Positions 5,038 through 19,044 of a DNA stretch of 56,059 nucleotides are shown piece by piece. Each line of letters begins with the position of its first letter. Positions within the stretch are counted from its first letter, which is position 1. Position numbers and translations under genes: made by a program. The DNA comes from a virus (taxonomy: Duplodnaviria; Caudoviricetes), in the IMG/VR virus record IMGVR_UViG_3300033004_000002, positions 1 to 56,059 of that record; one strand, given 5' to 3'. The notes beneath the pieces were generated by a model. That model did not search any database, was not told the origin of the DNA, and saw only the letters and a list, made by a program, of their open reading frames with translations.

Positions 5038-5046
5038 GCGAATCCG

Positions 5047-5310
5047 CTAATGCCGGCCGTGAAGACCATATCCCATCTGCACAGAGAAGCGCGGCACACC
5101 ATCGATGCAAAGATGCGTGATGCCGTTCTCCAGATCGATCAGCGAAAACCGCTCGATCTCAACACCGCACTCTCGGAACCGATGAATAGCGGCTTCGATC
5201 GCTTGGATTCGCGCCTCTCGCGCCTGGCGCACAAGGTCGACCGTCAGGCTATGAAAGACCTTTGAGTCAATGACCCCAGGCTCTTCATAAAATCTAGTCG
5301 GCACCTGCAC
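5047..5310 (-). CDS. Hypothetical protein between terS and terL
   Basis: GGAGG upstream; fills the gap. Confidence 0.6.
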   Translation of the reverse strand: MQVPTRFYEEPGVIDSKVFHSLTVDLVRQAREARIQAIEAAIHRFRECGVEIERFSLIDLENGITHLCIDGVPRFSVQMGYGLHGRH

Positions 5311-5743
5311 GCTGCGCCTCCCATTCGGATTCCGACATCGGCTTTTCCGAGATCAGGTAGACCGAGGCCGGGTTGTTGCCGGTGGGATCTGTCAGCGCGG
5401 TCTTGGTCACCGCCTTGAAGCCGTGCATGTCGCGGAGCTGGGCGAGCGCGCCAAGCCGATGCGGCCAATCCAGCACGACGCGGCGGCCGGGAAACTCCGA
5501 ACCATCGCCATAAGCGATTGCCGAAAGCGCCGTCTCGATCTGATCGCGCTTTTCACGAACCACGTCTTCGCTGGTCGCGACCAGTTCGGCGATGCGCGCC
5601 TGCACGGCTTTGTTGCGCTCAAGCTTGGTAGCAACGCCAGACGTCGGCTTAAGCCCGATCGCCTTCGCTGCCGCGCGCGGCGGAATCAAGATCGCGCGAA
5701 GACGCGAATACCGTTCGTGGTTCTCGTTGGTCAGGACTGGCAC
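5294..5743 (-). CDS. terS: Terminase small subunit
   Basis: Probable GTG start (MPVLTNENHERYS...), HTH followed by VQARIAEL; directly upstream of terL. Confidence 0.75.
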   Translation of the reverse strand: MPVLTNENHERYSRLRAILIPPRAAAKAIGLKPTSGVATKLERNKAVQARIAELVATSEDVVREKRDQIETALSAIAYGDGSEFPGRRVVLDWPHRLGALAQLRDMHGFKAVTKTALTDPTGNNPASVYLISEKPMSESEWEAQRAGAD

Positions 5744-5908
5744 AAGGTGATTCCAAAAGATTCCAACTTGTTCATGTTCCAAAAGATCGCCGCTCGCGCC
5801 GGGGAATGCCGGGATGGATGGACCGACACGAGCGGCAGTCAAAGGGAGGAAACGCCCTGAGAGGGCAGCGATAGCCGCAAGGTGACTACCGCATACCCTA
5901 TGCAAACG

Positions 5909-5937
5909 AAAAAGCCCGGCACTGAGGCCGGGCTCTT
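5909..5937 (-). terminator. Rho-independent terminator in the late leader
   Basis: AGCCCGGC/GCCGGGCT stem followed by a T-run on the minus strand. Confidence 0.8.
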
Positions 5938-5944
5938 GAAGATA

Positions 5945-5991
5945 TGGGGACAATGACCAGCGGAATTACATGGGACACCTGTCAGGTTATT
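5945..5991 (-). repeat. Bipartite site copy A (AATAACC-N26-GGTCATTGTCCCCA)
   Basis: Aligns with copies B-G. Confidence 0.9.
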
Positions 5992-6018
5992 GAGCGGTCT
6001 TTGCTCGGCTCTCTCCTT

Positions 6019-6052
6019 AAAAGAGAAAAGCCCGGCGCGAAGGCCGGGCTTT
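6019..6052 (-). terminator. Rho-independent terminator downstream of the NusG paralog
   Basis: AAAGCCCGGC-TTCG-type loop-GCCGGGCTTTT on the minus strand. Confidence 0.8.
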
Positions 6053-6211
6053 ATGCTTTGGAAGGCCGCCTATCCGCTGCAGCCGCTCCTCATTGCCGCG
6101 CCTGTCGGATAGCGCGCTCTGGGTATCTCAGGAATCGTTCTAATGGGCCAATCTCTTGGCCCTTCCGCCGGGCGCTTCGGCCCGTCTCCGCGTTGTCACG
6201 GGTGTAACCCG

Positions 6212-6790
6212 CTATACCGCTTCGATCTGGTCCTCATTCAAGTGCAGCAGGACCTGACGCGTCAATATCTCGATTAGAATGGTGATTCGGTAGCGCGGGT
6301 CAAGCCGCTCAATGCGACCTTCCCACATGTCGAACGGGCCGCCGATCAAGCGCACCTTCTGGTCGACCCTGAATTTGCGCTCCTCGGGCAGTCCGTTGCG
6401 CCTGGCTTCGAACCTGCGAACGTCTGCCATGACGCTGAGCGAGATTTTCAGTGCTTCCGGGCCTTGCTTGCCGCAGTATTTAACGAAGCCTCCGATGCCA
6501 TCCGCCGCATCCTTGAGCCTAGCGATATCGGCGTCGAAGTCCGGAATAAACATCGCGCCGGGAAAGATCGGGACCGTCCTCGACAAGCGACGGTTCCATG
6601 CACCCTTGATCGTCCGTTTTTCCTTCGGCACATAGGCCGAGATGCCGTGCTGATGCAGCTGCCGCTCGGCCTTCAGGTCATAGTTCGGATGCAGCCGCAG
6701 CAGGTACCACAGTTTCGGCAGCGGTGTTGCGATAACAGGCCCTTGGACGCACGCGACAAAATCCCTGGTTTCGTAAAGCGCTGCTGTCAT
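6212..6790 (-). CDS. NusG/RfaH-family transcription antiterminator
   Basis: NGN motifs (WYLL...P, PIFPG-MF) and KOW motif (F-x-x-D-Q-K-V-R-L-I-G-G-P-F); sits upstream of terminators and the late genes. Confidence 0.9.
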   Translation of the reverse strand: MTAALYETRDFVACVQGPVIATPLPKLWYLLRLHPNYDLKAERQLHQHGISAYVPKEKRTIKGAWNRRLSRTVPIFPGAMFIPDFDADIARLKDAADGIGGFVKYCGKQGPEALKISLSVMADVRRFEARRNGLPEERKFRVDQKVRLIGGPFDMWEGRIERLDPRYRITILIEILTRQVLLHLNEDQIEAV

Positions 6791-6811
6791 CTGTGGTGCT
6801 CCCTGATTGGT

Positions 6812-7972
6812 TCATTTGAAATCCGCCAGATCATCATCGGTTGCCAGCGCTTGCGGCGGGCCGGTGGTCGACAGTGTTCCATCCTTCCGGGGTGGCCATG
6901 GCCACGGCGCGCGCGAGCCTTCGCGCAGGCGTTGGCGGACCTGCAGGGTCAGATGCTCGCTGAGGAAGCTTTCCCAGGCCGCGGCCTGGTTGCGAGCCAG
7001 CGTCGCCCACTCCGCAACAGCCGGTGCCTGTGCGAGCGCCGCGAGCCGCGGCGTCATGGGAAGTTGATAGTAGACCCGGTCGCCCTTGCGGACGACACTG
7101 CGGAAGAAATCGCCCGCGCCAACGATGTCGTACAGCACAGAGACCGCGCGACCTTCGGGGCTGGCGGTCGGATAGCCGGACATTTTGGCCTCAACGGAGA
7201 CCTGCTCCAGCAGCGTCCAGCGCTTTTCCTTGAGATATTTCCATCCGGCAGGAACCGTGGTGCGCTTGTCGCGTTTCAGCTTTCCAAGAAATGCCGGGAT
7301 GCCGCCCAGCGCTGCCTCGCCCTCGTCGAATTCGAGCACGTACCACGCATCGTCGATCTTGGTTTGATCGTCGCTTGCCGCCGTCGGCCAGCGCCGCTTG
7401 AACTCGGCCAGATTGAGGGCGTGCTTTTCTCGCGCTCGCGCAAGTTCTCTCTCAGAATTTTGGTAAGATTCGTCCCTTGGTTCTTCCGTATTTGGTCCTT
7501 CTATATAGGCCACCCCTGCCTCACCACCCCTCTGGTCAACCACTACTGGCTGGGAGGGGGGTGGATCGTCTGGAATGGAGGGTGGTTCATCCGCCTCATC
7601 ATAGCCGCGCACAATGCCGTCGGGATCGACCTCGCTGGACACCAGCGACAAAGCCATCCTGATCTCGTCATCGCTCAGCTCTTTGCCGGGCAGATCGGAA
7701 ATATCGTAGAGAATGCAGAACGTTCCGTTGGGAAGGCGGATCTTGGTCGCCTGACACCAGCCGGCCGCCATCCACTTGTTCATGATGCGCTTCATGGTTC
7801 CGGGGCCGATGCTCCAGCGGCGCATCAGCGCGGAGCGGCGGATTTCCCAGTCGTGGGGACGTGACAACAGATAGGCCAGGATACCGACCTCGTCGGCGGC
7901 AAGGCGCATGTCATCGAACAGCGTGTTGCTGATCGTCGTAAAATTCTTGGTATGTCGACGGCGGATGATCAT
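6812..7972 (-). CDS. Replication initiator (N-terminal wHTH)
   Basis: NFTTISN...LAYLLSRPHDW wHTH, low-complexity linker, C-terminal FKRRWP...W..L...YL.EKRW domain. Confidence 0.75.
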   Translation of the reverse strand: MIIRRRHTKNFTTISNTLFDDMRLAADEVGILAYLLSRPHDWEIRRSALMRRWSIGPGTMKRIMNKWMAAGWCQATKIRLPNGTFCILYDISDLPGKELSDDEIRMALSLVSSEVDPDGIVRGYDEADEPPSIPDDPPPSQPVVVDQRGGEAGVAYIEGPNTEEPRDESYQNSERELARAREKHALNLAEFKRRWPTAASDDQTKIDDAWYVLEFDEGEAALGGIPAFLGKLKRDKRTTVPAGWKYLKEKRWTLLEQVSVEAKMSGYPTASPEGRAVSVLYDIVGAGDFFRSVVRKGDRVYYQLPMTPRLAALAQAPAVAEWATLARNQAAAWESFLSEHLTLQVRQRLREGSRAPWPWPPRKDGTLSTTGPPQALATDDDLADFK

Positions 7973-8184
7973 CTATTTTCTGGTTTCTTCTTGTTCGCAG
8001 GCCATAGCCCAAACCTGCATCTGTAGGCCTGCTGGCACGACCGTGCCGCGCAGATGATGGTGTCCGGGTTGAAGCACGGCTTCTCGAAATGCGGGCCGAA
8101 GCGGCGCCGGTCGAAGGGGACGAGGTGTTGGTCTTCCTCGGTCCATTCGAGGGGTGGTGTGGTGGGCGGCGGATGGGTGGTCAC
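7969..8184 (-). CDS. Hypothetical protein
   Basis: Coupled overlaps; GAGGAG upstream. Confidence 0.6.
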   Translation of the reverse strand: MTTHPPPTTPPLEWTEEDQHLVPFDRRRFGPHFEKPCFNPDTIICAARSCQQAYRCRFGLWPANKKKPENR

Positions 8185-8315
8185 TCCTCGGTCTCCCGGA
8201 TCGCGTCAGCGAGCGCTTCAAGCCCGCCCTTGAGGTCGTTACCGAGGCCCTCGATTCCGTAGGCAATGAACCAGCCAGCGACAGCCATCCCGATGCCGAT
8301 AAACAGCCCGTTCAT
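8181..8315 (-). CDS. Small membrane protein (MNGLFIGIGMAVAG...)
   Basis: ATGA overlap; one TM segment. Confidence 0.55.
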   Translation of the reverse strand: MNGLFIGIGMAVAGWFIAYGIEGLGNDLKGGLEALADAIRETEE

Positions 8316-8584
8316 GCCACCGCTCCCGCCGCCACGCCCGTGCACCTGATCGGCCAGCGCGACTGCGTCACAGCCCCCTTCTCGCGCCACTCGCGCCAGG
8401 CGTCGCCCTTCGGCGGGATCACGGTCACACGGGTGGCGCCGCAGGTGAGGCAGGTCTTTTCGTGCTGCTCGCAGCCGGTGACGGAGGCCTCCGGCTTGAC
8501 GATTTGTTCCTCGCCGAACAGGTGCTCCGGCGCGCGTGGCTGCGGCAGGTGCACGACGTAGCCCTCGGGCAGCGGCGTGCTCAA
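8312..8584 (-). CDS. Hypothetical Cys-containing protein
   Basis: Probable TTG start overlapping the upstream TGA; CxxC motif. Confidence 0.55.
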   Translation of the reverse strand: MSTPLPEGYVVHLPQPRAPEHLFGEEQIVKPEASVTGCEQHEKTCLTCGATRVTVIPPKGDAWREWREKGAVTQSRWPIRCTGVAAGAVA

Positions 8585-9345
8585 GTCAGACCACCTTGCG
8601 GCTCGCCAGTGCATGTCTGTCTCCGTTGATCTAGGGCGGAATAGCCGGGCGCGGGGTCGCCGAAAAAACAGGCCGTGAGAGACCGTTGAGCCCACGCATA
8701 GCTGCGCGCCTCGGCGTCACGCATGGCCTGCGAGATCTCGACCGGCTGCGGCAGCGGCTTGCTCGCTGCATGCAGGCCAAACGAGGCCCCGTGCGTCCGC
8801 AGCCGGCTCGCGACGGCGGTCGGCGTGCGGTCGAGTTCGGTGCCGATGACCTCGCAGACACGGCGGCGATCGGCGTGCGTGCCGCCGCCATTCTCGGTAA
8901 ACAGCTCGCGCCAGCGGGCCTGGGCCAGCGTCATGTCGGCCTCGGACCATGGCGGATTCTGCCGTTCGGCAGGAGGTGCGGTCTCGCCGGACTCGCCGTT
9001 GCCGGCGTTCGGCCTGAGCCGGTTGTACTTGTGCGAGCAGGTGCCGTGCATGCGGCCGAAATGGCTGTCGATGTCGAGCCAGCACAGCTTTTCGACCTCG
9101 CGCAGCCGGATCAGTTCGGCCTCGGTCTCGGGCGTCCAGCGCGGCCTATTGACCTGGCGCAACTTGATGGCGGTAGCGATCTCCGCTGACGGTCGTTTGC
9201 AACGCGAGGGGTGCGTTACCTTGTTCTTGCAGGACGCGACCGTGCGCCCCACGGCGTCCGCGATCTCGTTCCATGTCGCATTGCGCGCCAGCATGCGAAA
9301 CAGCGTCGCTGTCTGTTCCTCGGTCCAGACGGGGCCCCGTGCCAT
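8581..9345 (-). CDS. GcrA/Myb-like tandem HTH regulator
   Basis: Three W-[TS]-x-x-x repeats each followed by an HTH (WTEEQ, WTPET, WSEAD). Confidence 0.7.
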   Translation of the reverse strand: MARGPVWTEEQTATLFRMLARNATWNEIADAVGRTVASCKNKVTHPSRCKRPSAEIATAIKLRQVNRPRWTPETEAELIRLREVEKLCWLDIDSHFGRMHGTCSHKYNRLRPNAGNGESGETAPPAERQNPPWSEADMTLAQARWRELFTENGGGTHADRRRVCEVIGTELDRTPTAVASRLRTHGASFGLHAASKPLPQPVEISQAMRDAEARSYAWAQRSLTACFFGDPAPGYSALDQRRQTCTGEPQGGLT

Positions 9346-9382
9346 GGTTCAGTTGCTCCTGTTGATCGTGATGCATTCCAGA

Positions 9383-9429
9383 TGGGGACAATGACCGGGG
9401 TCGCCTGTGGCGGCCCCTGTCAGGTTATT
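9383..9429 (-). repeat. Bipartite site copy B
   Basis: AATAACCTGACAGG...GGTCATTGTCCCCA with a 26-nt spacer. Confidence 0.9.
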
Positions 9430-9448
9430 ATCGACCGGTTGTGCGGCG

Positions 9449-10252
9449 TTAGATCTTGCCGAACACCGCCATGACGCTGGTGCGCTCGACCACCCCCGTC
9501 ACGATCAGCTTGAACGCGGCCTGCCGGATCAATTCCGAGCGGTGCAGCTTGATGCCGAGCGTCAGCTTGGCATCGTCCAGTTTCCAGCGCAGGAAGGCGT
9601 AGACCTCGGTCGGCGGATCGCCGAAGTATACCGGGATGTTGAGCAGGAACCTGGTCGGCAATTCGAGATCGCCTTTGGTGCGCGCCTCGGTGTTGTCGTT
9701 GAACTCGAAGCTCTCGTTGTCGGTCTCGGTCCGTATCGCCTTGATGAAGCTGACGTTGCGGCGGGCCTGCAGGTCGCGGCATGCCTCCAGCAGCGAGCCG
9801 GCATCGGGTGCCTTGATGTCGGGCGCGTTCTCCTCGATGAAGCGGGCAAACTCGAGCTGCTCGCTCATCTTGCCGTTGATGCCGCTCCAGATCTTCCATT
9901 CCTCTGAGAACGGCAGATCGAGCGTGGCGCGATGCTCGACCAGCGCCGGGGATTGGGCACCGTGATAGTCGACGGCGGCCAGGATGCGGCTCGCGGCGAC
10001 GTCGGCGAGCAGCAGCGACTCTGCGGTCTTGAAGCGGTTGAGGTAGTCGGCCATCGCGTCCGCGTTCTGCAGGGTCACGCCCTGCTTGATGCTTTTCGGC
10101 TTCAGCACCTCCGTCTTGTGCGGTGGCGTCACCTCGATTGAGCCGTGATCGTTGGGGACGATCAGGTATTCGCGGCCGCTCGGCGTCGAAATGACGTGCG
10201 GCGCGGCTGCGGCTTTCTGGGCCAGTTTGGCAATCGAATCGGTTTCGGTCAT
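9449..10252 (-). CDS. DUF2303 (YfdQ-like) phage protein
   Basis: AVDYH...HRATL...SEEWK-W...Q-EFA-FIEEN and LP-RF-L-IPVY motifs. Confidence 0.85.
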   Translation of the reverse strand: MTETDSIAKLAQKAAAAPHVISTPSGREYLIVPNDHGSIEVTPPHKTEVLKPKSIKQGVTLQNADAMADYLNRFKTAESLLLADVAASRILAAVDYHGAQSPALVEHRATLDLPFSEEWKIWSGINGKMSEQLEFARFIEENAPDIKAPDAGSLLEACRDLQARRNVSFIKAIRTETDNESFEFNDNTEARTKGDLELPTRFLLNIPVYFGDPPTEVYAFLRWKLDDAKLTLGIKLHRSELIRQAAFKLIVTGVVERTSVMAVFGKI

Positions 10253-10303
10253 GGTCTCTCCGGGTTGGATATCGTCGGTTAATCGTGCAGTGCGGTTGAA
10301 CGA

Positions 10304-10624
10304 TCAGTCGCGCGCGGCCGATCGGCCGCCCGCCTCGGTGAACATCTCACGCTGTTGCGGGTCGGAGCGGTGCAGGCTGCCTTCCTCGTCCGAGAAGAAC
10401 ACCGCTTCCGGAATGTCGCCTTCCGGCATCTTGGCCTTGACGTCGCAGCCGATGGTCTTCTGCGAGCCGCCACCTTTTTCGGGCTTGACCTTGAAGGTGA
10501 TCGTCAAGGTGCCGGCCTTGCCGGTTTCGTCGACCGCCTGGACCAGTTCAGCCATCTTGCGGCTCGCCACATCAGCGGCGCGGCCGTTGCGGTATTCGCG
10601 GAGAATGTCGGTGATCAATCGCAT
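10304..10624 (-). CDS. Conserved phage protein usually paired with DUF2303
   Basis: V..TGKAG.LT.T...P...FF...G.L.R.DP.Q pattern; AGGAGG RBS. Confidence 0.8.
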   Translation of the reverse strand: MRLITDILREYRNGRAADVASRKMAELVQAVDETGKAGTLTITFKVKPEKGGGSQKTIGCDVKAKMPEGDIPEAVFFSDEEGSLHRSDPQQREMFTEAGGRSAARD

Positions 10625-10650
10625 GCGCTATTTCCTCCTGTTGGATTCGA

Positions 10651-10697
10651 TGGGGACAATGTCCAGCGCCGTGCGCTGGGACACCTGTCAGGTTATT
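10651..10697 (-). repeat. Bipartite site copy C; contains the NADAR stop codon
   Basis: Shares 21 nt with copy A; 26-nt spacer. Confidence 0.9.
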
Positions 10698-11241
10698 GTT
10701 GACCGACCTCGCGGCTTCCGCGCAGTTCGGCGCGAATTTCCATCCAGAGCTTGCCGAGCATATTCTGGCCGTCGCGGTTCGGACCCCATCCCCAGAAGTC
10801 ATCCCGCCAACTGTCCTCAATGAGTTCGCGATCGTCGGTCGCGAGGAGCTTGCGGCGCACGTATTCATGCTGGTTCGCTTTCTCGCGCAGTATTTCGCGC
10901 ATGAAGGCAATCTTTTGAAAGTCCCAATCACCAACCTGAAAACGCTGCTCCTGCTGCGCCAACTTGAAGGCATCATGAGCAGATCGTGCATTCTTGACCT
11001 TGCCAGCGATAAGCTGGGCACCGGGCAAATCCGACAACGTAAACCGCAACCAGTGATAAAGATGCTCGCTGGTCTTGAAGGTGAATCCGGACCATTCGAC
11101 CTCGAACGACGAGAAGTTCGAAAGGACATAGAAGTCCTGTTCGTAAAAGAAAACCTGCCGCTCGTTGTCGAGCTTGTGAAACTCCGGAACTGCGGGGTAA
11201 CCGATGACTGCCGACGCGGGCTCAGTGGCGCGGTGATCCAT
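10693..11241 (-). CDS. NADAR (YbiA-like) family protein
   Basis: LSNF...F-T-SEH-Y...K..QH...LLAT...E-S-D-FWG...G-N-LG-LWM-IR motifs. Confidence 0.92.
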   Translation of the reverse strand: MDHRATEPASAVIGYPAVPEFHKLDNERQVFFYEQDFYVLSNFSSFEVEWSGFTFKTSEHLYHWLRFTLSDLPGAQLIAGKVKNARSAHDAFKLAQQEQRFQVGDWDFQKIAFMREILREKANQHEYVRRKLLATDDRELIEDSWRDDFWGWGPNRDGQNMLGKLWMEIRAELRGSREVGQQ

Positions 11242-11243
11242 AT
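11189..11243. repeat. 55-bp repeat (site H) forming the 5' end of the NADAR gene
   Basis: 52/55 identical to 17503-17557. Confidence 0.95.
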
Positions 11244-11255
11244 CCTTCTCTCCGT

Positions 11256-11498
11256 TTACTTCTTGTTTTCCTTCGTCGCCGGCACGATCACATACCCCGC
11301 CTGCCGCAACAGCCGCAGCGTCTGAAAGATCACCTGGTCCCCGTCCTCAACGGGACGCCCCGGCACCCACTGCGTCCCGTTGAGCGCGAGCGCGATCACC
11401 TCGCCGGGCGTGAGCACGGGCGCGGCCGTGGGCTTGCGCAGGACGGCCGCGAGGTCGTCGATGATGAGGCGGCGGGTGGCCGAGGTACGGGGGGTCAT
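11256..11498 (-). CDS. Hypothetical protein
   Basis: ATGA coupling. Confidence 0.65.
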   Translation of the reverse strand: MTPRTSATRRLIIDDLAAVLRKPTAAPVLTPGEVIALALNGTQWVPGRPVEDGDQVIFQTLRLLRQAGYVIVPATKENKK

Positions 11499-11959
11499 GG
11501 GTGATGTCCCAGCGAGCGGGCGTCACTGACCTGACTCGGCAGAATCATTCGGGTGACCTCGTCCGGCAGCGTGAACATGCTCTGTCGCCCGCGATATGGG
11601 ATCGGTTGGTTCAGTTTGACGATCGCCGCGCGGCGCCACGCGAAGCGCCCGGCTTCCCAGTTACCGCACTGGAAATCATCGGCATGCGCCGGCTTCGCCG
11701 CAGGCATCTGCTCGCAGGCGATCAGATCGACCGCGCCGATGATTGCGCTCGTCGGCAGGTCCATGGCCCAATGGCCGCCGAACTCATCGTCGAGGATGTC
11801 CTGCATCGCAGCCCACGTGCTGAAATCCTTTTCGAAGTGCTTCGTCGCGTGCACGGCGAGCCAGCCGCGGTGCGGCGTCGACCAGTGCCGGGTTTCGTGG
11901 ACCTTGCGGTCGGTCAGCCACAGCGAGGCCCAGGGTTGCCACAGGGAGATTGCTTTCAT
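11495..11959 (-). CDS. ASCH domain protein
   Basis: MKAISLWQPWASL...K-HETR-W...RG-LAVHA...G-QS motifs. Confidence 0.9.
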   Translation of the reverse strand: MKAISLWQPWASLWLTDRKVHETRHWSTPHRGWLAVHATKHFEKDFSTWAAMQDILDDEFGGHWAMDLPTSAIIGAVDLIACEQMPAAKPAHADDFQCGNWEAGRFAWRRAAIVKLNQPIPYRGRQSMFTLPDEVTRMILPSQVSDARSLGHHP

Positions 11960-12159
11960 GCTGTCACCCCATCCGGTTCACACACAGGCGTCCCCTTCCC
12001 CTCGCCCCTCTCCCCGTCCCGCCAGAACTCCACCCCATGCACGCGGCCCTCGCGTCCAAACGGATGCAGCGTGACCTTGATGGTGCGGCAGCCGCGCAGG
12101 CATTCGCGCTCGGTCTTGTGCACCATGCGATTGCCGAGCTTGGGCCAACGATGGTTCAT
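11956..12159 (-). CDS. Hypothetical protein
   Basis: ATGA coupling on both sides. Confidence 0.6.
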   Translation of the reverse strand: MNHRWPKLGNRMVHKTERECLRGCRTIKVTLHPFGREGRVHGVEFWRDGERGEGKGTPVCEPDGVTA

Positions 12160-13292
12160 GGGCGGCGCTCCGGCATCGCGTTGTGTTCGACGTCGTCGAG
12201 CAGGCGGCCGGCGCGGGCCTTGCCGACGCGCTCGACGAACGCCGCACCGGCCTCCGGGTAAAGCTCATCGGCCCGCGCGACATGCGGATAAGCCTTGATC
12301 GCCTGCCACCCAGAACGCGGATTTCCCTTGGCCTGCTCCGGCGTCGACGGCGCCCATTCGCCCCATTGCTTGAAGAAGAAGGGCACGCCGGCAGCCTGGC
12401 ACTGGTCGCGCAGCGATCGGTCCCAATCGACATGCATCGGCCGCGCCCTCGGGCCGCTCTCGCCGCCGACGATCACCCAGTCGAGGCGCGGGCCGCAGTT
12501 CGTGGACCAAACGGAATGACTCCCGGTGCCGTCTGCCCGGCGATGTGACCAAGTCCCATCCTCATGAAGATGTTCACGCCGATCACTCCCAGTGAGAACG
12601 TTATATCTCTCCCGAACTGTTTTCCGGTCTGGTACGAAGCCTCGCATTGCCCAGGGAATCGCCGTCAAGTCGATCGGCCCCAGCAGCGGCTCGCCGCTGA
12701 TGAACCGCACCGCTGCTGGCGTCTGCAGCAGCAGCGGAATCCGTTCGTCGGCCTCCTGCTGCCGCTCGGCAGATACACCGAGCCAGACGTTCGGCAGCGG
12801 CCAATTCACTTGCCAGTCGCCGCCATGGTTGATCTTGCTGCCTTCGGGCGTGCCCAGCATTGACCAGATATGGCCGTTGATCGTGTGACGGCTCGTCCTG
12901 ACGCAATAATCCCGCATCCTTCGCGCCCGCTTCGTCAGCACCTGAAACGTATGCTGCGGGCACAACGCCATCACCGCGAAGACGCGATCGATCCATGCAT
13001 CGGGACAATCCTCGTGGAACAGGTCGCTCATCGAGTTGACAAAATACGTGGTCGGTTTCTTCCGCTTCAGCGGCTGCAGCAGCGTTGCTTCCGGTGCCTG
13101 CACCAGCTTTCCGGTCCACAACGCGTTGCCGTTGACGACGCGAGTGGTGCCGTCATAGCGGGAGATGCCCATGGCCTCGTTGCGGGCTGCAGTCTTCATG
13201 GCATAGCAGTTGGTGCAGCCGGGGGGGACGATGGAGCAGCCGACGATGGGATTCCAGACGTGTGACGTCCATTCGATCGAGGTTTTGCTCAT
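12156..13292 (-). CDS. DUF5131 / phage Gp37-Gp68 family (radical-SAM-like)
   Basis: IEWT...WNP-GC-x4-GC-NCYA, FVNSMSDLFH, LTKR, WVIVGGESG, PFFFKQWG. Confidence 0.92.
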   Translation of the reverse strand: MSKTSIEWTSHVWNPIVGCSIVPPGCTNCYAMKTAARNEAMGISRYDGTTRVVNGNALWTGKLVQAPEATLLQPLKRKKPTTYFVNSMSDLFHEDCPDAWIDRVFAVMALCPQHTFQVLTKRARRMRDYCVRTSRHTINGHIWSMLGTPEGSKINHGGDWQVNWPLPNVWLGVSAERQQEADERIPLLLQTPAAVRFISGEPLLGPIDLTAIPWAMRGFVPDRKTVRERYNVLTGSDRREHLHEDGTWSHRRADGTGSHSVWSTNCGPRLDWVIVGGESGPRARPMHVDWDRSLRDQCQAAGVPFFFKQWGEWAPSTPEQAKGNPRSGWQAIKAYPHVARADELYPEAGAAFVERVGKARAGRLLDDVEHNAMPERRP

Positions 13293-13471
13293 GTCGGCAC
13301 CCCGCAATCCGGACACCCATGCAGCCACACCTCGGCAATCTTGCGGACGTGCCAGCCCTCGCGCTTCATCATCGCGCGGGCCTCGTCGAAATCCCTGGTC
13401 CTGGTGTCAAGGACTTCATCGCAGCTGTCGCATTCGATGTGGATGATGCCGCCTTGCTGTCGATCGATCAT
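13289..13471 (-). CDS. Small Zn-finger protein (CDSC...CPDC)
   Basis: Two CxxC motifs; coupled. Confidence 0.7.
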   Translation of the reverse strand: MIDRQQGGIIHIECDSCDEVLDTRTRDFDEARAMMKREGWHVRKIAEVWLHGCPDCGVPT

Positions 13472-13755
13472 CAGATGTACCCCTTGACGATCCATCCGAT
13501 TGCAACGGCTATAAGAGGAACAAGCAGCGGATAGGTGATCGCGTCCCATGTCTCATCATCCTTCTGTGGAATCTGCTGATGGCAGAGCAGAGAGACAACG
13601 AGCGAAACCGCAGTCGCCTGCGCGATCGATAGCGGCGGCGCATGGAAAATCGGCACCATGAACCATGACCAGAGCACGCTCAGAGCCCAGCCACGCAAGA
13701 GCGTCAAACCACCGATGACGGCGCCAACTATAACGGCTGATATGATGACGATCAT
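13471..13755 (-). CDS. Small membrane protein
   Basis: Several hydrophobic segments. Confidence 0.7.
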   Translation of the reverse strand: MIVIISAVIVGAVIGGLTLLRGWALSVLWSWFMVPIFHAPPLSIAQATAVSLVVSLLCHQQIPQKDDETWDAITYPLLVPLIAVAIGWIVKGYI

Positions 13756-14205
13756 CTAGAAGTCACCTTCAGCAACTTGCGCACACGGCACCCCCGCCGC
13801 CCGCCAAGCCTTAACCACCCGCGATCGATCATCAAAAACAACCACCGGCTCAAAGCCGTCGGCGCGGACCTGTTCGAGCAGAACGATCTTCAGCACGTCG
13901 TCGTCGCGATGATCGCCGTCCGGGCGCATGTAGAGCCGCAGCGGATAGCGACCGGTATAGGCGCCGTGATCGGACAGCCATTGCGCGGTCTTCTCCCTGC
14001 AGCGCTCCGCGCGGCCCGATACGAAGACGGTCACCAGCTCGCGATCGAGGGCGCGCAGCACGCGGATCATGTGCGGGATCGGCTTGTCGTCGTGACAGAG
14101 ATCGAAATAGGCATCCCATTGCTTGGGTGTCTGTTGAATCAGGTGCAGGCGGTGATCGCCGTTGGCGAGGGTACCGTCGATGTCGAAGATCACGCAGGGT
14201 TTCAT
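13756..14205 (-). CDS. HAD phosphatase (T4 PNK 3'-phosphatase-like)
   Basis: IFDIDGTLA, VSGR, MRP..D.R.D..K, FDDR..VV..WR, QVA-GDF. Confidence 0.9.
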   Translation of the reverse strand: MKPCVIFDIDGTLANGDHRLHLIQQTPKQWDAYFDLCHDDKPIPHMIRVLRALDRELVTVFVSGRAERCREKTAQWLSDHGAYTGRYPLRLYMRPDGDHRDDDVLKIVLLEQVRADGFEPVVVFDDRSRVVKAWRAAGVPCAQVAEGDF

Positions 14206-14207
14206 GA

Positions 14208-14483
14208 TTAGATATTCCGATCCGATCCGCAAAGCATCCGCGCGCGGCGCCAGAATTCATCAGCGCTGACGCGAAAGTTCAGATTGATGTCGTTGTTGTC
14301 GATGGTCACGGTGCCGTCGTCATTGCAGATGATGGCGCCGCGATGGGCGCGCGACGCGTTATCTGCTGCGGCCCACAGAGCTATGAGCGCCGACCCGACA
14401 ATAACGACGATCGCAGCCTGTCTCACAGTCCGTTTGGTGCGGATGATTTCCCATTTCAGCCGGTCCTGCTCGAGCCAGGTCAT
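14208..14483 (-). CDS. Hypothetical membrane-anchored protein
   Basis: One TM segment; coupled. Confidence 0.6.
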   Translation of the reverse strand: MTWLEQDRLKWEIIRTKRTVRQAAIVVIVGSALIALWAAADNASRAHRGAIICNDDGTVTIDNNDINLNFRVSADEFWRRARMLCGSDRNI

Positions 14484-14773
14484 CGCACCGGCTCCGATGA
14501 TGGCGAAATCTCCCGCGCATAAGCGTAGGTCTTCGCGCGCGGCCAGCGATCCGAACGGTTGAGCGTGATCGGTCCCCGGAAGCTCCGATCCTTGACGATG
14601 TCGGGCGCGGCACGCCAGCGGCCGTGCGGCGCGATGCTGCGCGCGCCGTTCTGGCGATAGGTGTTCGCGGGTCGTGGCGTCTTGCGGCGCTTGGCCGGCT
14701 TGGATGGTTCGGTCACGTCATATCCTCCGTTCAGGAGCGCACGCGACGATGAAACCGCGCCCGTGCAAGCCAT
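14480..14773 (-). CDS. Hypothetical basic protein (start probably near 14716)
   Basis: GGAGG upstream of an internal GTG. Confidence 0.5.
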   Translation of the reverse strand: MACTGAVSSSRALLNGGYDVTEPSKPAKRRKTPRPANTYRQNGARSIAPHGRWRAAPDIVKDRSFRGPITLNRSDRWPRAKTYAYAREISPSSEPVR

Positions 14774-14906
14774 CGAGCGCGATCAGCATCCTGATGTTGC
14801 GTTCGCACGCATCAGCGTTTTCGGCATCGAAGTGTGCGAGCGAATGGCCCTGCGGAATCGGGCATAGGGCGAGATGGATGCAGGCGATGAAGACGCTGAA
14901 GGTCAT
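14718..14906 (-). CDS. Small Cys-containing hydrophobic protein
   Basis: ATGA coupling. Confidence 0.55.
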   Translation of the reverse strand: MTFSVFIACIHLALCPIPQGHSLAHFDAENADACERNIRMLIALDGLHGRGFIVACAPERRI

Positions 14907-15298
14907 GCCGCTTCGCCCTCCTGCTCATCCTCTTCAAAAGGGAAGTCGTCATCATCCCCATCGCCCGAGACCATATCGTCAGGTGTACCCGGCTTCGGTA
15001 GCGTCAGCCGTGACGGCGGCTCCCACGGTTTGTTGCGCGCGAGCACGGTTTCCTCATCGGTCAGGGCGTAGGAGAAGATCGCGGCACCAGAATAGTAGTG
15101 CGTCGTCCAGCCGTGCGCGGCCGGGTCGCCCTTGATCGGCACATCGATGCGCAGCATCTTGGCGCCGAAGCGTTCCTCTTCGCGGGCGCGGCCCCAATGG
15201 CTGCGATGGCCCATGATCTCGACCAGCATCCATTCCCAGCCGGGTTCGGTTGCCGTGGGTTGTGGTTGGGTGATCTGCTCTTGTGCTTCGTTCGTCAT
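14903..15298 (-). CDS. Conserved phage hypothetical protein
   Basis: W-LVEIMGH...GR.REEE.FG.KMLRIDVP pattern; GAGG RBS. Confidence 0.75.
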   Translation of the reverse strand: MTNEAQEQITQPQPTATEPGWEWMLVEIMGHRSHWGRAREEERFGAKMLRIDVPIKGDPAAHGWTTHYYSGAAIFSYALTDEETVLARNKPWEPPSRLTLPKPGTPDDMVSGDGDDDDFPFEEDEQEGEAA

Positions 15299-16878
15299 GC
15301 CGCCTCATCCTCGTTTGAAACGTGCGGAGGCGCGGACTGTGTCCCTACGTCTGAGCCGGCTGCCCCAACCAAGGGCTCCCCCGTCTCGCGTTCGCATAGC
15401 GTGCTGGGGGCCTCGCGAGCCGTACCAGACGCCTCCTCTCTGGGTAATTCTGAACCAGGTGCTTCATTCCCCCACGCATCCCAGCCCGGCCGCGCGCGAC
15501 GCGCGTTCAATTCGATCTTGGGAAGGTTCGGGAAGTGAAATTCCGCATGCTCATATTGCTGGTCCGGCTTCTCGCTATGCTCGCCGACAGGCGCTTCGAA
15601 CAGGCTGCGGAAATGCGCGGTTGCCGGCGGCACGACGTTGCCGCGCACGCAGATCAGGAGAATCTCGTGCTCGCCGGTCACCCAGTAACCGGGGCCACGG
15701 CCGGCGCCGTTGCGCAGCTTGGCCCAGACACGTTGGGTTACATATTTGAAGCCGCGCAGCTCGATGACCCGATGGGCGATGGCCTCGTGGGGGATCGTGG
15801 TCCACATGTAGAGCACACAGTCGTCAGCCAGGCATTTGAAGCGCTCGGCGGTCCGAGCGACGATTTCTTCCGGCGTGTGGGCATCGGCCGCCGTCGGGTA
15901 ATGATTGGAGGGATGCCGGTCCATTCCGGACTCGCGAGACCAGGGTTGATGGTCCCATTCGAAATCCTCGATGGCGACGCCGTAGGTCTTCTCGGACATG
16001 CTCTGCAGCTTGCGGCCGAGATCGGCCTCGCGATCATTGCGGCGCTCTTTCTTCGCGGCCTGTTTTTCGGCGCGGATTTCCTTGATGACGGGGGCCAGCG
16101 CTTTCTTGGCCTCCGGCGTCAGCTTTCCGGTCTCGTCGCGCGGAAGCGCCGCGAGAATGGCTTCCTGTTCTTCAGCTGGCCGGCGGGCGATCTCCTCCGC
16201 GGCCGACGCCACGATCTGACCATCGCGGACCGCTTCGTTCAGTTGCTCGGTACCATGATCGCGGACCACGGCAGCGCTCGCGATCAGGCGCGCGGACACA
16301 TGCCCGCGTTCCGCGAGATCGGCGCGCGTCGACGGGGTTGGTGTTTCGGCTGGAATATCAAGATGCAAATTTGCATCTTGCTGCTGTGGTTGCCGCGGTC
16401 CGCCCCAGCGATATTGCTCATAGGAGGCCATCGCATGCGCCCGCTGCGAGGCCTCGAGGTGCCGCCGGAAGATGTTCTTGCTGATGACGTAGTCGAGCGC
16501 CTCGTCATTGGTGCCGGTGAACTGCTCGCACAGAACCGCCAGATTTCTCTTCCTGCAGGCGCGGTAGCGGTTGCGGCCGTCGAGGATCATGTCCTTATGG
16601 ATGATGACCGGATCGCGTTGGCCGTTGGCCGCAATGTCAGCGGCGAGTTCATTCAGCTCGGTTTCGGACAGCAGCGGGAACAGGCCCGCGAAAGGATGGT
16701 CCTTCAGGCGTTCGTGGCCCGCTTCGAGCGAATAGACCTGATTCACCATCTCCCCCACCCTCGGCACCGCCACGCAGGCCTTGCAGGCCGACGCCTTGCC
16801 GTCCGGCTTGCGCTGGTCGGTCTTGAAATCGTCGAGCGGCTTGGCCTGGTGGCAGCGGCTGCAGGTTTTGGTGGTCAC
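15295..16878 (-). CDS. ParB-like domain + MT-A70-family adenine methyltransferase, N-terminal Zn finger
   Basis: CxxC pairs; HP.A.LFP...ILDGRNR..AC ParB-like block; HY-T, LYMWT, GF-Y..W-K, E.LL...RG, HS-KP, IEL-AR...GWD-WGNE. Confidence 0.88.
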   Translation of the reverse strand: MTTKTCSRCHQAKPLDDFKTDQRKPDGKASACKACVAVPRVGEMVNQVYSLEAGHERLKDHPFAGLFPLLSETELNELAADIAANGQRDPVIIHKDMILDGRNRYRACRKRNLAVLCEQFTGTNDEALDYVISKNIFRRHLEASQRAHAMASYEQYRWGGPRQPQQQDANLHLDIPAETPTPSTRADLAERGHVSARLIASAAVVRDHGTEQLNEAVRDGQIVASAAEEIARRPAEEQEAILAALPRDETGKLTPEAKKALAPVIKEIRAEKQAAKKERRNDREADLGRKLQSMSEKTYGVAIEDFEWDHQPWSRESGMDRHPSNHYPTAADAHTPEEIVARTAERFKCLADDCVLYMWTTIPHEAIAHRVIELRGFKYVTQRVWAKLRNGAGRGPGYWVTGEHEILLICVRGNVVPPATAHFRSLFEAPVGEHSEKPDQQYEHAEFHFPNLPKIELNARRARPGWDAWGNEAPGSELPREEASGTAREAPSTLCERETGEPLVGAAGSDVGTQSAPPHVSNEDEAA

Positions 16879-17102
16879 ACCCGCCCCCGCATCTGCTTGA
16901 TCTTCGCCCTCACCACCTTCGGCCACAGCACGATCATCACCGCGATGGCGAGCGCGACGAAGCCGCCCGGCGGCAGCCGGCCGAAGCGGGCGCAGTAGCG
17001 CGACAGCGCGAAATCGATGTAGGCGGATGGTTCGCACAGCATCCAGACCAGCGCCCCGATCAGGAGATAGACGAGCAGCCATGCAACGGGATCGAGCAAC
17101 AT
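16875..17102 (-). CDS. Small membrane protein
   Basis: Two TM segments; GGGAG upstream. Confidence 0.65.
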   Translation of the reverse strand: MLLDPVAWLLVYLLIGALVWMLCEPSAYIDFALSRYCARFGRLPPGGFVALAIAVMIVLWPKVVRAKIKQMRGRV

Positions 17103-17233
17103 GCGAAACACTCCCGGAAATCGAGACAAAGAGGCTCACGCGTTGCGATGATGCGACGCGCGGGCAGGCGTTGGGACTTTGGGTTGACGCAAACGGAACG
17201 CGGGTGATGCTTTACGCGTAGGAAAACGAAGGT

Positions 17234-17280
17234 TTGGGACAACTGCCGGGGTCGCGCGGGGCGGCCCCTGTCAGGTTATT
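17234..17280 (-). repeat. Bipartite site copy D
   Basis: AATAACCTGACAGGGGCCGCC...GGCAGTTGTCCCAA; close to copy B. Confidence 0.9.
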
Positions 17281-17282
17281 GG

Positions 17283-17561
17283 TCAGTCTTTGCGCGGCTC
17301 GGGATACTTGACCCCGCAGAACGGACAGAAGCTCGCGAATATCTTGGTCGGCTTGCCGCGCTTCCTCCCGTCCAGCTTCATCGATTCAATGAACGGACGC
17401 TGCAGTCCGATCCAGGGCAACATAATCTGGGTGTTGCTCTCGGCGAGCTTGGCGTTGATGCGATCGATACAATCACAGTCCGCTGCTGGTGCGTCGTAGT
17501 CGACTGCGGGGTGACCGATGACTGCCGACGCGGGTTCGGTGGCGCGGTGATCCATATTCAA
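17283..17561 (-). CDS. Zn-binding hypothetical protein (CDC...FCPFCG)
   Basis: N-terminus MDHRATEPASAVIG shared with NADAR. Confidence 0.75.
   Translation of the reverse strand: MNMDHRATEPASAVIGHPAVDYDAPAADCDCIDRINAKLAESNTQIMLPWIGLQRPFIESMKLDGRKRGKPTKIFASFCPFCGVKYPEPRKD
17503..17557. repeat. 55-bp repeat (site I)
   Basis: 52/55 identical to 11189-11243. Confidence 0.95.
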
Positions 17562-17568
17562 ATCCTTT

Positions 17569-17643
17569 TGGCTGGGAAGGCAGGATTCGAACCTGCGACA
17601 AGGCGGTTAACAGCCACCCGCTCTACCTCTGAGCTACATCCCA
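17569..17643 (-). tRNA. trnN: tRNA-Asn (GTT)
   Basis: Cloverleaf TGGGATG/CTTCCCA (one mismatch), D arm GCTC/GAGC, anticodon loop CT-GTT-AA, T loop TTCGAAT, discriminator G, encoded CCA. Confidence 0.95.
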
Positions 17644-17649
17644 TCGTCG

Positions 17650-17942
17650 ATGATCGGGCGACGGCGGGGCATATAGCGCGATCACGCGCCCTTCCCGATG
17701 GAGCTGGCATCGCCAGACGATCGCCCCATGTCATTGACCCGGGCTGTTGGATGCCAAGGCCGTCGCCCGAACTGAATTTGTGGGGGACGCATTTGCGCGT
17801 CCCCCTGCTGAATGGGGCCGGCGGTTGGTGCGGAGTTTCTTCCCGTTGGCCATATAGTCCGGCCGCCTTGTGTGCCAGGGAGCACCAACGCTCTGATCCC
17901 AGCACCCTCATGCCCTCGCCACCTTGCGGCAAAGGCCCCTCT
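17650..17942 (-). ncRNA. Cluster of structured RNA domains 5' of the tRNA
   Basis: Stems TCGGGCGACGGC/GCCGTCGCCCGA, GGGGGACGC/GCGTCCCCC, GTTGGTGC/GCACCAAC, GGGGCC/GGCCCC. Confidence 0.55.
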
Positions 17943-17951
17943 TGGATTCGA

Positions 17952-18221
17952 TTAAACGCGCTTGCGTGGCCGCAGCTCGTCAAGCACGGCCATGAGCGCT
18001 TCGTAGGACGGAGGCGTCTTGCCGGTGATGTAGAGGTTCGCGACGCGCTCGGTCTTGCCGATGATCTGTGCGAGCGCAACGCCGGGCTTGTCGATGCCCC
18101 ACAGCGCGATGCATACCCGGCCGAAGGGAGGAAGATTTTCCCGGCCAAAGTTTCGCGGAAATAAATTTCCCGGCGTTCTCCTTGAGAACCCCGCAGTACC
18201 GGCGCTTGATTCGCTTCGCAT
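17952..18221 (-). CDS. Putative CII-like HTH regulator
   Basis: LAQIIGKTERVANLYITG HTH-like segment; position downstream of cro. Confidence 0.55.
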   Translation of the reverse strand: MRSESSAGTAGFSRRTPGNLFPRNFGRENLPPFGRVCIALWGIDKPGVALAQIIGKTERVANLYITGKTPPSYEALMAVLDELRPRKRV

Positions 18222-18465
18222 GACGCACCCACTCCACCACGCACACCACCCATCATCCGAACGCCCCGGCCTCCCCCATCAAGGCGAAATGATGGCAGGG
18301 AAACTGGAAGAACGTCCGTCACAAAAAAATAACATTTATGTTTGTCACCCGCCGAAATTGTGTTTTCATGGCGTACACCATTACCAAAATGGCGAGACAA
18401 CTCGGCTGGCGGCGGCGGGGTGCGACCATGGGCGCAGTGATTCTGAAGTTTCGGCGACGTCGTCG

Positions 18466-18687
18466 TCATGTGCGGGCCTCTTCGGTGGTCTCGAAACCGA
18501 AGACCGAAGGGCAGACGTCATCCAGATGCCTCGCCGCGAGCGCTTCCTTGATCAGGATAAACTTCTGCTGCGAGATTTTCCCTCGCGCGCGCCAGTTGCT
18601 GACGGCCGACACGCCGACGCCCGCGACCTCGGCCGTTCCGGCCGGTCCTCCGAGCGCGTCGATGACGTCGTCGACTGAATTGAGCAT
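18466..18687 (-). CDS. cro: Cro-like HTH protein
   Basis: VIDALGG...A...GV..SAVSNW..RG.I HTH; divergent from the repressor. Confidence 0.85.
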   Translation of the reverse strand: MLNSVDDVIDALGGPAGTAEVAGVGVSAVSNWRARGKISQQKFILIKEALAARHLDDVCPSVFGFETTEEART

Positions 18688-18693
18688 GCCACC

Positions 18694-18722
18694 AAATTGT
18701 TCACGATATGTGAAGATGTCAA
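18694..18722 (-). promoter_or_regulatory. Leftward promoter (TTGACA-N17-CAATTT) with operator TTCACGATATGTGAA (18700-18714) in the spacer
   Basis: Sigma70-like boxes; palindrome matches three sites at 19045-19111. Confidence 0.75.
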
Positions 18723-18775
18723 CCCTTCACGGAAAGGCAATAGAAATTCCTGCGCCGGTGAGGTCTCATTTGACC

Positions 18776-19036: not shown

Positions 19037-19044
19037 CCTACTGT

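Follow-up and report, generated by a model that had tools for sequence, protein, structure and literature searches.

The promoter-early stem-loops (PeSLs) of T4-like phages (Arbiol et al. 2010, PMC2839356; Comeau et al. 2014, PMC4122927) are, in the available text of these papers, short, conserved, transcription-oriented intergenic elements that start at the upstream stop codon, include an AT-rich patch and hold the Shine-Dalgarno (SD) sequence and start of the next gene at their 3' end. They mark hyperplastic regions, where they flank ORFans and accompany insertions, deletions and replacements between relatives, with a single element standing where a relative has element-gene-element, and the exchange has been attributed to homologous recombination. 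In these respects, including the position of the next SD sequence and start, which was tested here, they resemble boundary elements that we found in a 56,059-bp phage genome (IMG/VR record IMGVR_UViG_3300033004_000002; the whole stretch is called the window below). A NADAR gene and an unrelated gene for a 90-aa, Cys-rich, Zn-finger-like protein (the Zn gene) are each bracketed there by the same gene-start leader and the same gene-end motif. The arrangement also recalls integrons, whose cassettes are single, mostly promoterless accessory genes with a recognizable 3' site that is often entered by the open reading frame (ORF), and which likewise come in empty and alternative alleles.

An earlier note on this DNA had read the two genes as single-gene units with standardized ends, that is, a shared 55-bp start and a shared gene-end sequence around unrelated cargo. 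A repeat search returned the same 55-nt direct repeat (11189-11243 and 17503-17557), identical at 52/55 positions (95%), and blastp detected no similarity between the NADAR and Zn-gene cargo bodies. The longest exact direct repeat in the window measured 22 nt, against a maximum of 19 nt in 30 shuffles, and by our arithmetic the chance expectation of a 52/55 match over ~1.6e9 position pairs lies far below 1e-10. Both minus-strand ORFs start at the leader ATG, with the translations MDHRATEPASAVIGYPAV... (NADAR) and MDHRATEPASAVIGHPAV... (Zn gene), and share the N-terminus MDHRATEPASAVIG(Y/H)PAV. The next in-frame start lies at codon 65 in NADAR and at codon 45 in the Zn gene; both genes therefore depend on the leader ATG, and the note was right that the start codon is supplied by the shared end. 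The second leader copy lies 13 nt past a tRNA-Asn gene.

A hidden Markov model of the leader found two copies in the window, two in the complete related phage G004, at least six in a 25.7-kb fragment (G003) and further ones elsewhere. Judged from their translations, 21 copies fell into in-frame fusions starting at the ATG (10), separate ORFs (6) and otherwise non-standard forms (5). The separate ones are upstream ORFs (uORFs) of 23-24 codons (L026, L025, L043 and three in G003) that carry a GGAGG-type SD sequence in their 3' end, 8-10 nt before the cargo ATG, and whose stop overlaps the cargo start (ATGA in five, TAA in L026); two of the six are without a canonical start codon. Many leader copies carry a second SD sequence (GGAGGATG) followed by the cargo's own ATG. 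In L043, L025, L061 and L064, the leader lacks a start codon or contains in-frame stops: L064 has in-frame stops, and L061 is directly preceded by a stop and has no start. Across 18 unique copies, the entropy by codon position was 0.59, 0.67 and 0.69. This flat profile, the in-frame stops and the missing starts led us to reject a conserved peptide. Given the lack of codon periodicity, the detached uORF copies and the untranslatable ones, the leader is a nucleotide-level gene-start element whose peptide is incidental. A structured RNA was rejected as well, since RNAalifold found no common fold in 4 or 15 copies; the fold z-scores of 10 single copies ranged from +2.6 to -2.9 without a consistent sign, and a scan of 5000-20000 gave no Rfam match with E <= 1 at either window leader.

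Downstream, both genes are followed by a motif of two boxes, ATAACCTGACAGG-N24-TTGTCCCCA, with 24 nt between the first box and TTGTCCC in either copy, so that the gene-end sequence of the earlier note was recovered too. The NADAR stop TAA (10693-10695) sits within the motif, as that note had said, and the Zn-gene stop TGA (17283-17285) lies 2 nt ahead of it; the Zn gene takes its last codons and its stop from the tail of this second copy. The sequence AATAACCTGACAGG occurs exactly four times in the window, always on the minus strand (5978, 9416, 10684 and 17267), and with up to 3 mismatches it gave 9 matches against 1.57 expected, a number reached in 0/100 shuffles. In total, the window contains six motif copies (A to F in Table 1), four canonical and two diverged, and the motif reaches ~25 nt further upstream as ..GAGCCGCGCAAAGACnGnnC-AATAACC, with the consensus GAGCCG(C/A)GCAAAGACnGnnCAATAACC; the elements are thus commoner than had been stated. 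ORFs terminate in this extension in two frames (tails ...PRKD-stop, ...KDASIT-stop and ...Q-stop). The stop codon lies in or beside AATAAC, and at 28/33 sites the best of the frames that end there stays open over 80 codons or more, two of these 28 open frames being spurious.

All six window copies are co-oriented with the local genes, and an SD sequence plus ATG follows copies B, C and E within 15-30 nt. The motif follows the direction of transcription and is linked to gene ends. Its two boxes are invariant and their spacing is 24+/-1 nt; the N24 spacer is locus-specific and is kept between orthologous sites. In some copies, the GC-rich spacer can fold into a hairpin (z -2.3, -2.1 and -1.6). 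Leader and motif also occur separately: G003 has at least six leaders and one motif, and 4/6 window motif copies follow leaderless genes. In G003 (L018/L019; 18560-25094, minus strand), the leaders head successive genes over 6.5 kb, three of them being 23-codon uORFs with the ATGA overlap, and the motif stands only after the last gene. Copy A lies in a ~170-nt insertion that is missing from G004 and is bounded by a duplicated intrinsic terminator (6052-6027 and 5929-5913). Several candidate identities of the motif were rejected: a sigma-70 promoter found no support in a promoter scan, and sigma-54, sigma-32 or Caulobacter-type promoters did not fit in a hand comparison with the consensus sequences. 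As copy A lies inside the insertion that G004 lacks, a late promoter and a site for antiterminator loading by the NusG-like protein were rejected as well.

If such ends flank exchangeable cargo, as the earlier note supposed, relatives should hold alternative cargo or empty sites, and both were found. The first slot has the order DUF5131 ... 80-aa gene, leader, cargo, motif, ... and Myb-like gene. Seven phages, the window included, have seven different contents in it, namely, NADAR, DUF4326 and five ORFan arrangements (Table 1). Identity to the window is 79-87% in the upstream gene, 84-93% in the leader and 85-94% in the motif, and the cargo aligns no better than random sequence. A blastp comparison of 11 valid cargo bodies gave a single related pair. 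The second slot has the order 89-aa gene, (tRNA), leader, cargo, motif and methylase gene, and yielded five cargos and one empty allele. In the empty allele, L037, a tRNA-Met is followed by CCGCGCAAAGACCGACCAATAACC... within ~30 nt, and homology to the window begins exactly at the tail CCGCGCAAAGACCGACCAATAACCTGACAGG..., with no target-site duplication at the L037/window junction. The L037 methylase is up to 96% identical to that of the window in tblastx segments, so the presence/absence difference is recent.

The related pair points to movement between the slots. The first-slot cargo of L026 is the second-slot cargo of G004 (284/300 nt; 95% aa identity), and the flanks of the L026 cargo, including its N24 and downstream sequence, are of the first-slot type. 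In a three-way alignment, L026 tracks the first slot of G004 across the upstream gene and into the leader's 5' part, changes to the second slot of G004 at ~AGGATGC and returns to first-slot sequence after CCAATAACCTGACAGG, so that one of its breakpoints falls in the leader's 3' part and the other in box 1. In addition, motif C, two genes and motif B of the window correspond to a single motif in G004, which is chimeric, with a C-like N24 (19/24 by our count) and a B-like downstream flank. This chimera is the product expected of a crossover between C and B in box 2, removing or adding a 1.27-kb module. The Zn cargo recurs with an identical leader-cargo junction in different backbones (relative P0003 and the window).

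No enzyme of a site-specific exchange system was detected apart from the phage integrase. Tyrosine recombinases (PF00589) gave 0 matches in the complete genome, with 14/14 control genomes positive, and the Y1 (PF01797) and DDE (PF00665) transposase families gave 0 matches as well, in line with the earlier statement that no dedicated transposase is in view; the large serine recombinase is the sole site-specific recombinase detected in the window. The cassette ends are mutually unrelated sequences in the same orientation, and the junctions vary, lying at ATATGG, inside the leader or after it on one side, and at the tail or box 1 on the other. The absence of such enzymes, the unrelated ends, the shifting junctions and the ortholog-conserved spacers argue against a site-specific system and favor double crossovers in the arms, the mechanism put forward for PeSLs (PMC2839356, PMC4122927).

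Table 1. Boundary elements, slot contents and neighboring features of the window and its relatives
Feature	Position	Strand	Remarks
Gene-start leader copy 1	11183..11247	-	ATG 11241-11239; in frame with NADAR; nhmmer E 1.8e-19
Gene-start leader copy 2	17500..17560	-	ATG 17555-17553; nhmmer E 8.7e-19
Motif copy A	5945-5990 (with tail 5945..6013)	-	Solo; tail present; without cargo
Motif copy B	9383-9428	-	After DUF2303 gene, before Myb-like gene
Motif copy C	10651-10696 (also delimited as 10651..10698)	-	Holds NADAR stop TAA
Motif copy D	17234-17279 (with conserved upstream tail 17234..17305)	-	Tail GAGCCGCGCAAAGACTGACC
Motif copy E, diverged	26226-26271	+	ATAACCGAACAGG...TTGTCCCCA; upstream of plus-strand genes
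Motif copy F, diverged	30861-30905	-	Upstream of 99-aa minus-strand gene
Slot-1 cargo, NADAR gene, 182 aa	10693..11241	-	Residues 1-18 = leader
Slot-1 left flank, conserved 80-aa gene	11256..11498	-	Present in all relatives examined
Slot-1 right landmark, Myb-like regulator gene	8581..9345	-	Conserved
Two-gene module (106 aa, phrog_204; 267 aa, DUF2303)	9449..10624	-	Between motif copies C and B
Slot-2 cargo, Zn gene, 90 aa (Cys-rich, Zn-finger-like)	17283..17555	-	Fused to leader
Slot-2 left flank, tRNA-Asn	17569..17643	-	Relatives: tRNA-Met or none
Slot-2 right flank, ParB-like/MT-A70 DNA methyltransferase gene	15295..17139	-	Conserved
Slot 1, window			NADAR
Slot 1, G004			DUF4326, E 4.3e-20
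Slot 1, L026			Separate 24-codon leader ORF + 99-aa ORFan
Slot 1, L029 (= L031)			122-aa ORFan
Slot 1, L038 (= L045)			107-aa ORFan
Slot 1, L060			69-aa Cys4 protein
Slot 1, G003			Two leader-headed genes in tandem
Slot 2, window			Zn gene
Slot 2, G004			121-aa ORFan, diverged leader MDQRTSEIASAVIGQPAA
Slot 2, G002			Marginal DUF551 protein
Slot 2, L060			108-aa ORFan, same SD/ATGG start, without leader
Slot 2, L031			~90-aa ORF, without leader
Slot 2, L037			Empty
Terminase large subunit	3415-5037	-
NusG-like antiterminator	6212-6790	-
AAA_24/Sak4-like candidate single-strand annealing protein	20740-22134	+	phrog_124 4.2e-10; PF13479 1.6e-8
Large serine recombinase (phage integrase)	28702-30399	+	phrog_95, 3.1e-92

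We propose that the phage group carries two families of boundary elements oriented with transcription, a gene-start leader of 55-75 nt with SD sequence and ATG and a gene-end motif of 46-70 nt starting at or just past the stop codon; a slot would be one gene bracketed by the two, and the window would have two such slots. The primary role of the elements would be in expression: the leader would give an inserted gene a ready translation start, by in-frame fusion in the window or by uORF coupling in relatives, and the motif would punctuate the transcript as a terminator, an attenuator or a protein-binding site. Because they are conserved between slots and phages, the elements probably also act as short homology arms: when co-infecting phages or prophages meet in a cell, homologous recombination, whether general or relaxed, would replace the gene between the arms. 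A foreign gene would be captured first by illegitimate recombination and then be subject to selection for expression, which would explain the varied junctions. We estimate the probability of this reading as a whole, in which boundary elements of expression serve at the same time as arms for gene replacement, at roughly 0.65. The catalyst may be the host RecA or a phage annealase; single-strand annealing proteins of phages recombine short, diverged DNA, according to the available portions of three papers (PMC5499656, PMC8093625, PMC5928155). The Sak4-like protein of the window is a candidate whose family assignment is weak (E 4e-10 and 2e-8); the RecA of the host would do as well.

The cargo families themselves occur without these ends. 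The NADAR protein covers positions 1-163 of the 163-position PF08719 profile (E 2.1e-28) and is 64-80% identical to named NADAR proteins, its catalytic activity being a prediction; its closest homologues (76-82% identity, 161-167 aa) begin M-E-L-HKLD, which aligns at residue 19 of the window protein. The Zn gene gave a sub-threshold DUF6980 match and no significant Pfam family. Its relative P0003 retains the leader and reads on to ...PSKDASIT, its homologue P0004 is without leader and tail, and P0005 bears the leader on another cargo. The leader and motif ends are, therefore, not part of the cargo families. Moreover, the cargo bodies are GC-poorer than the phage (NADAR 54% and Zn gene 57.5%, versus 63%). 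Regarding function, the available text of PMC11257639 describes phage NADAR proteins that strip ADP-ribose from DNA and neutralize DarTG1, and that of PMC9503650 describes DUF4326 in viruses as fused to NADAR, Macro and SLOG domains and proposes it as a processor of ADP-ribose derivatives. The first slot takes two unrelated folds whose chemistry is related, which suggests that it is a counter-defense slot; the cargo as a whole would comprise counter-defense and further accessory genes.

Several points weigh against this reading or its parts. On the left side, some junctions fall at the very edge of the leader or beyond it (the second slot of L060, and that of the window compared with L037), so leader homology cannot explain every event; as these junctions indicate, illegitimate events also occur, presumably at first capture. 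Both the recombination, seen through its end states, and the expression role of leader and motif are inferred. The motif hairpin is missing in other copies (z ~0; range -2.3 to +0.1 in 8 copies), and RNAalifold on 31 motif copies gave no consensus helix and no covariation above shuffles in the two registers tried, with a pairing of 75.5% versus 74.0% in shuffles. A sigma-70 scan of 5000-20500 returned 0 promoter-like sites; the motif has a -35-like CTGACA (5/6 of TTGACA) with no -10 sequence 16-18 nt downstream. The counter-defense theme is drawn from NADAR and DUF4326 alone, because most cargos are ORFans. Finally, the relatives are metagenomic contigs, several of them short, and for single contigs such as L026 a chimeric assembly at the repeats is a small possibility, although the exact runs shared there are of only 16 nt or less.

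Other explanations have to be weighed against the homology-arm reading. The motif could be a repressor or regulator site, stoperator-like, and the leader a regulator or small RNA (sRNA) target, with cargo turnover as ordinary illegitimate mosaicism that ends by chance at these protected sites and in which homology plays no role. The two invariant boxes with their spacing of 24+/-1 nt, the lack of structural covariation, the orientation of all window motif copies with transcription and the temperate lifestyle of the phage would agree with this, as would the junctions outside shared sequence and an mmgR-like sRNA candidate with a CCUCCC motif nearby. Nevertheless, both the L026/G004 swap and the C/B chimera of G004 break inside shared sequences, and a cargo with an identical leader junction recurs in different backbones (P0003 versus the window), which makes this explanation unlikely. 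In the stoperators of mycobacteriophage L5, also a temperate phage, many asymmetric sites lie in short intergenic regions in one orientation to transcription; the present motif differs in having two boxes over 46 nt and 4-6 copies, and repressor binding is not known for it. To our knowledge, a link to cassette turnover is not a described feature of stoperators. Alternatively, the shared 18 residues could form a functional N-terminal peptide needed by the proteins as a targeting, packaging or stability tag. Both window genes, and 10/21 classified leaders, are fusions that can be started only at the leader ATG, and the available text of PMC9503650 proposes NADAR-type proteins as virion-packaged in some phages. 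However, the 18 copies lack codon periodicity, six copies are separate uORFs that leave the peptide detached from the cargo, some have no start codon or have internal stops, and the nearest NADAR and Zn-gene relatives are without the peptide; such a tag is decidedly unlikely.

A dedicated, integron-like site-specific system would have the motif, perhaps together with the leader, recombined by the serine recombinase or by an unrecognized protein. Copy C forms a good imperfect inverted repeat centered on ACG, a form shared by the att sites of serine integrases, and the cassette ORFs end within the motif much as those of integrons do within attC. There are, besides, a motif standing alone (copy A) and an allele without cargo (L037), and the integrase module lies between the diverged copies E and F, which are inverted relative to each other. 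Against it, the genome has no tyrosine recombinase, the serine recombinase belongs to an ordinary phage integrase family, the cassette ends are unrelated in sequence, the junctions vary between cassettes and copies A, E and F have weak inverted symmetry. Moreover, the N24 is locus-specific and conserved in orthologs, which would not be expected if loci were repeatedly cut and rejoined with one another, and we consider a system of this kind very improbable. As the window comes from a metagenome assembly, the leader repeat could also be due to chance or to an assembly artifact, but the statistics of repeat and motif exclude chance, the architecture recurs in many independent contigs from other samples, and a second assembly matches 8500-18500 without a difference, which leaves this with a negligible likelihood.

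Neither the leader nor the motif is a PeSL or an integron component. PeSLs have a sigma-70-like promoter (-35 and -10 boxes) and a stable stem-loop with a terminator or attenuator role, and they form encapsidated mini-circles. Compared with PeSLs as described in the available text of the papers cited above, the motif is without a sigma-70 -35/-10 pair and its stem-loop is inconsistent; whereas PeSLs occur in T4-like myoviruses, the present phage is a temperate one with 63% GC and probably an alphaproteobacterial host; and the 5' arm is formed by a second, separate element, a leader that is translated in some copies and not in others. This arm carries the SD sequence and ATG, so the cargo is often fused to the leader or translationally coupled with it. 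Unlike an integron, the phage has no IntI and no attI/Pc platform, nor does it have a cassette array, the two slots lying 6.3 kb apart with one gene each. The 3' element is conserved in sequence, with invariant boxes and no covariation, whereas attC is conserved in structure, and the junctions here are variable. Miniature inverted-repeat transposable elements (MITEs) and insertion sequences differ in that the present ends are non-identical, have the same orientation and form no terminal inverted repeats, and no transposase is present. The integron- or MITE-style analogy of the earlier note was thus not supported, also considering that leader and motif occur independently, and its statement that the end sites are mutually inverted holds only weakly, for a 4-5-nt inverted core (GACAG/TTGTC). 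Overall, the pattern fits PeSL-like recombination at shared boundaries better than a site-specific cassette system.

The uORF leaders have exactly the layout of the bicistronic design (BCD) translational couplers, as defined in the available text of PMC5995908, in which the leader cistron holds the SD sequence of the second cistron and its stop overlaps the start, allowing context-independent translation of any downstream gene. This layout is present in 6/21 classified leaders. The present leader differs from BCD in being natural; the two window copies are fused in frame and not coupled, some copies are untranslatable, and the coupling in relatives is predicted. The original study of the design is said to be that of Mutalik et al. 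2013. At the internal-protein loci of T-even phages, unrelated cargo proteins share a short N-terminal capsid-targeting coding sequence at a polymorphic locus. The present leaders likewise join a short conserved N-terminal coding sequence to unrelated cargos at a polymorphic locus, but their conservation is at the nucleotide level without codon periodicity, and the peptide is often detached from the cargo. In archaeal viruses, a shared regulatory sequence marks otherwise unrelated anti-defense genes (PMC11065993); these viruses infect another domain and carry another motif, and the available text of that paper makes no claim of recombinational exchange. A literature search with ATAACCTGACAGG, its reverse complement and MDHRATEP returned no relevant paper, the 2 text matches being unrelated, and the literature on phage cassettes and anti-defense hotspots, supplementary files lying outside the search, contained no description of such elements.

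If correct, the homology-arm reading would extend PeSL-type shuffling, described so far in lytic T4-like myoviruses, to uncultivated temperate GC-rich phages, with a new architecture in which the 5' arm is a translation-start leader that fuses or couples with the cargo. The L026/G004 pair would be a clean natural example of one gene moved between two slots with both breakpoints within shared arms. The uORF leader would be a natural counterpart of synthetic bicistronic design and may serve as an expression part in GC-rich hosts. If the slots serve counter-defense, the two arms could be used as probes for new anti-defense gene candidates. A bolder version, in which leader and motif form a dedicated counter-defense platform, an 'integron without an integrase' whose slots the phage's own annealase would actively load and swap on ~50-nt arms and whose captured genes would each be expressed immediately through the coupler, is quite unlikely in our view; if it were true, arm searches would harvest unknown anti-defense genes directly from metagenomes.

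Complete as a virus record, the window has 62.9% GC and a direct terminal repeat of 127 bp; the phage is temperate, and its genes between ~20.2 and 0.4 kb lie on the minus strand. A second assembly, of a public run and possibly from the same sample, gave an independent Logan contig (55,939 nt) that reproduced 8500-18500 with 0 differences. Contigs of three DNA sequencing runs matched the window in many short stretches of low similarity that come from other organisms, and the low cover of the two cargos in runs X2 and X3 carries no weight, as the cargos are bridged by no contig. Among GenBank phage records, no close relative was found, a 14-kb region matching only short unrelated actinophage stretches of 119-135 nt, and neither the leader nor the motif end had a match there, even in a distant search. 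Relatives were found by exact-pattern scans of viral, metagenome and genome contigs. The viral contigs gave four with the pattern, including G004, a complete syntenic phage of 54.5 kb with 66-85% nt identity; the metagenome scan gave 29 loci, 15 with tblastx homology of at least 30 aa to the window and 14 with none among the matches listed; and the genome contigs gave eight loci, with L060, from a Pseudolabrys metagenome-assembled genome (MAG) bin, as a clear relative and L059 and L054 with partial homology. Since only these three are homologous to the window, the name Hyphomicrobiales is a hint from MAG binning; the host of the group is probably alphaproteobacterial. The pattern has 19 fixed bases, and by our arithmetic ~13 chance matches are expected in 596 Gb of genome contigs. 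Some matches in large collections must be due to chance, so only loci with synteny or a full second box were used. A leader 20-mer match in the 499-kb contig L014 stands in an unrelated context and was taken as chance, and a search of viral contigs with the 80-aa protein gave 115 pattern matches with 0 confirmed as related loci.

Some further features of the window were noted. In the second-slot methylase (614 aa), a Cys-rich Stc1/endonuclease-VII-like finger at the N-terminus is joined to a ParB-like segment and an MT-A70 domain. Beyond the first slot, the DUF5131 protein (12156-13328, minus strand) covers the whole 243-position profile over 372 residues, which indicates a large insertion relative to the family, and a tRNA-Phe call at 13714-13807 (minus strand) is unusually long (94 nt), with its anticodon at position 38, and overlaps the ends of neighboring ORFs. 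At 25470-25490 on the plus strand, the string ..GICDM stands in frame before the ORF 25485-26204; the same string ends a degenerate leader-like sequence in L031 (1786-1836), and it may be a relic of a plus-strand leader. Motif copies E and F share a 25-nt box (26221-26245, plus strand, and 30886-30910, minus strand; 96% complementarity) and face each other across a 4.6-kb segment containing the serine integrase, and they might form a pair of regulatory sites for the lysogeny module.

The region around motif copy A and the NusG-like gene was also compared with G004. Just past the late-region terminator, 5773-5873 (minus strand) gave a sub-threshold Rfam match to the alphaproteobacterial sRNA suhB/mmgR (34.1 bits against a gathering threshold of 41; E 7e-4); it has UUUCCUCCCUUUG, is 75% conserved in G004 (3815-4015) and may be a phage-borne anti-SD sRNA. 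A stretch of ~65 nt after the NusG-like gene (~6131-6197, minus strand; ..ACGCGGAGACGGGCCGAAGCGCCCGGCGGAAGGGCCAAGAGATTGGCCCATTA..) is near-identical in G004, where it stands directly before an intrinsic terminator; the NusG-like antiterminator could load here ahead of the late genes, or the stretch could act as its leader RNA. Between the NusG-like gene and this conserved late leader, G004 (L015) has an extra small gene (MSDIDDLEDIAEQ...; 4128-4376, minus strand) that the window lacks, which makes this another variable spot.

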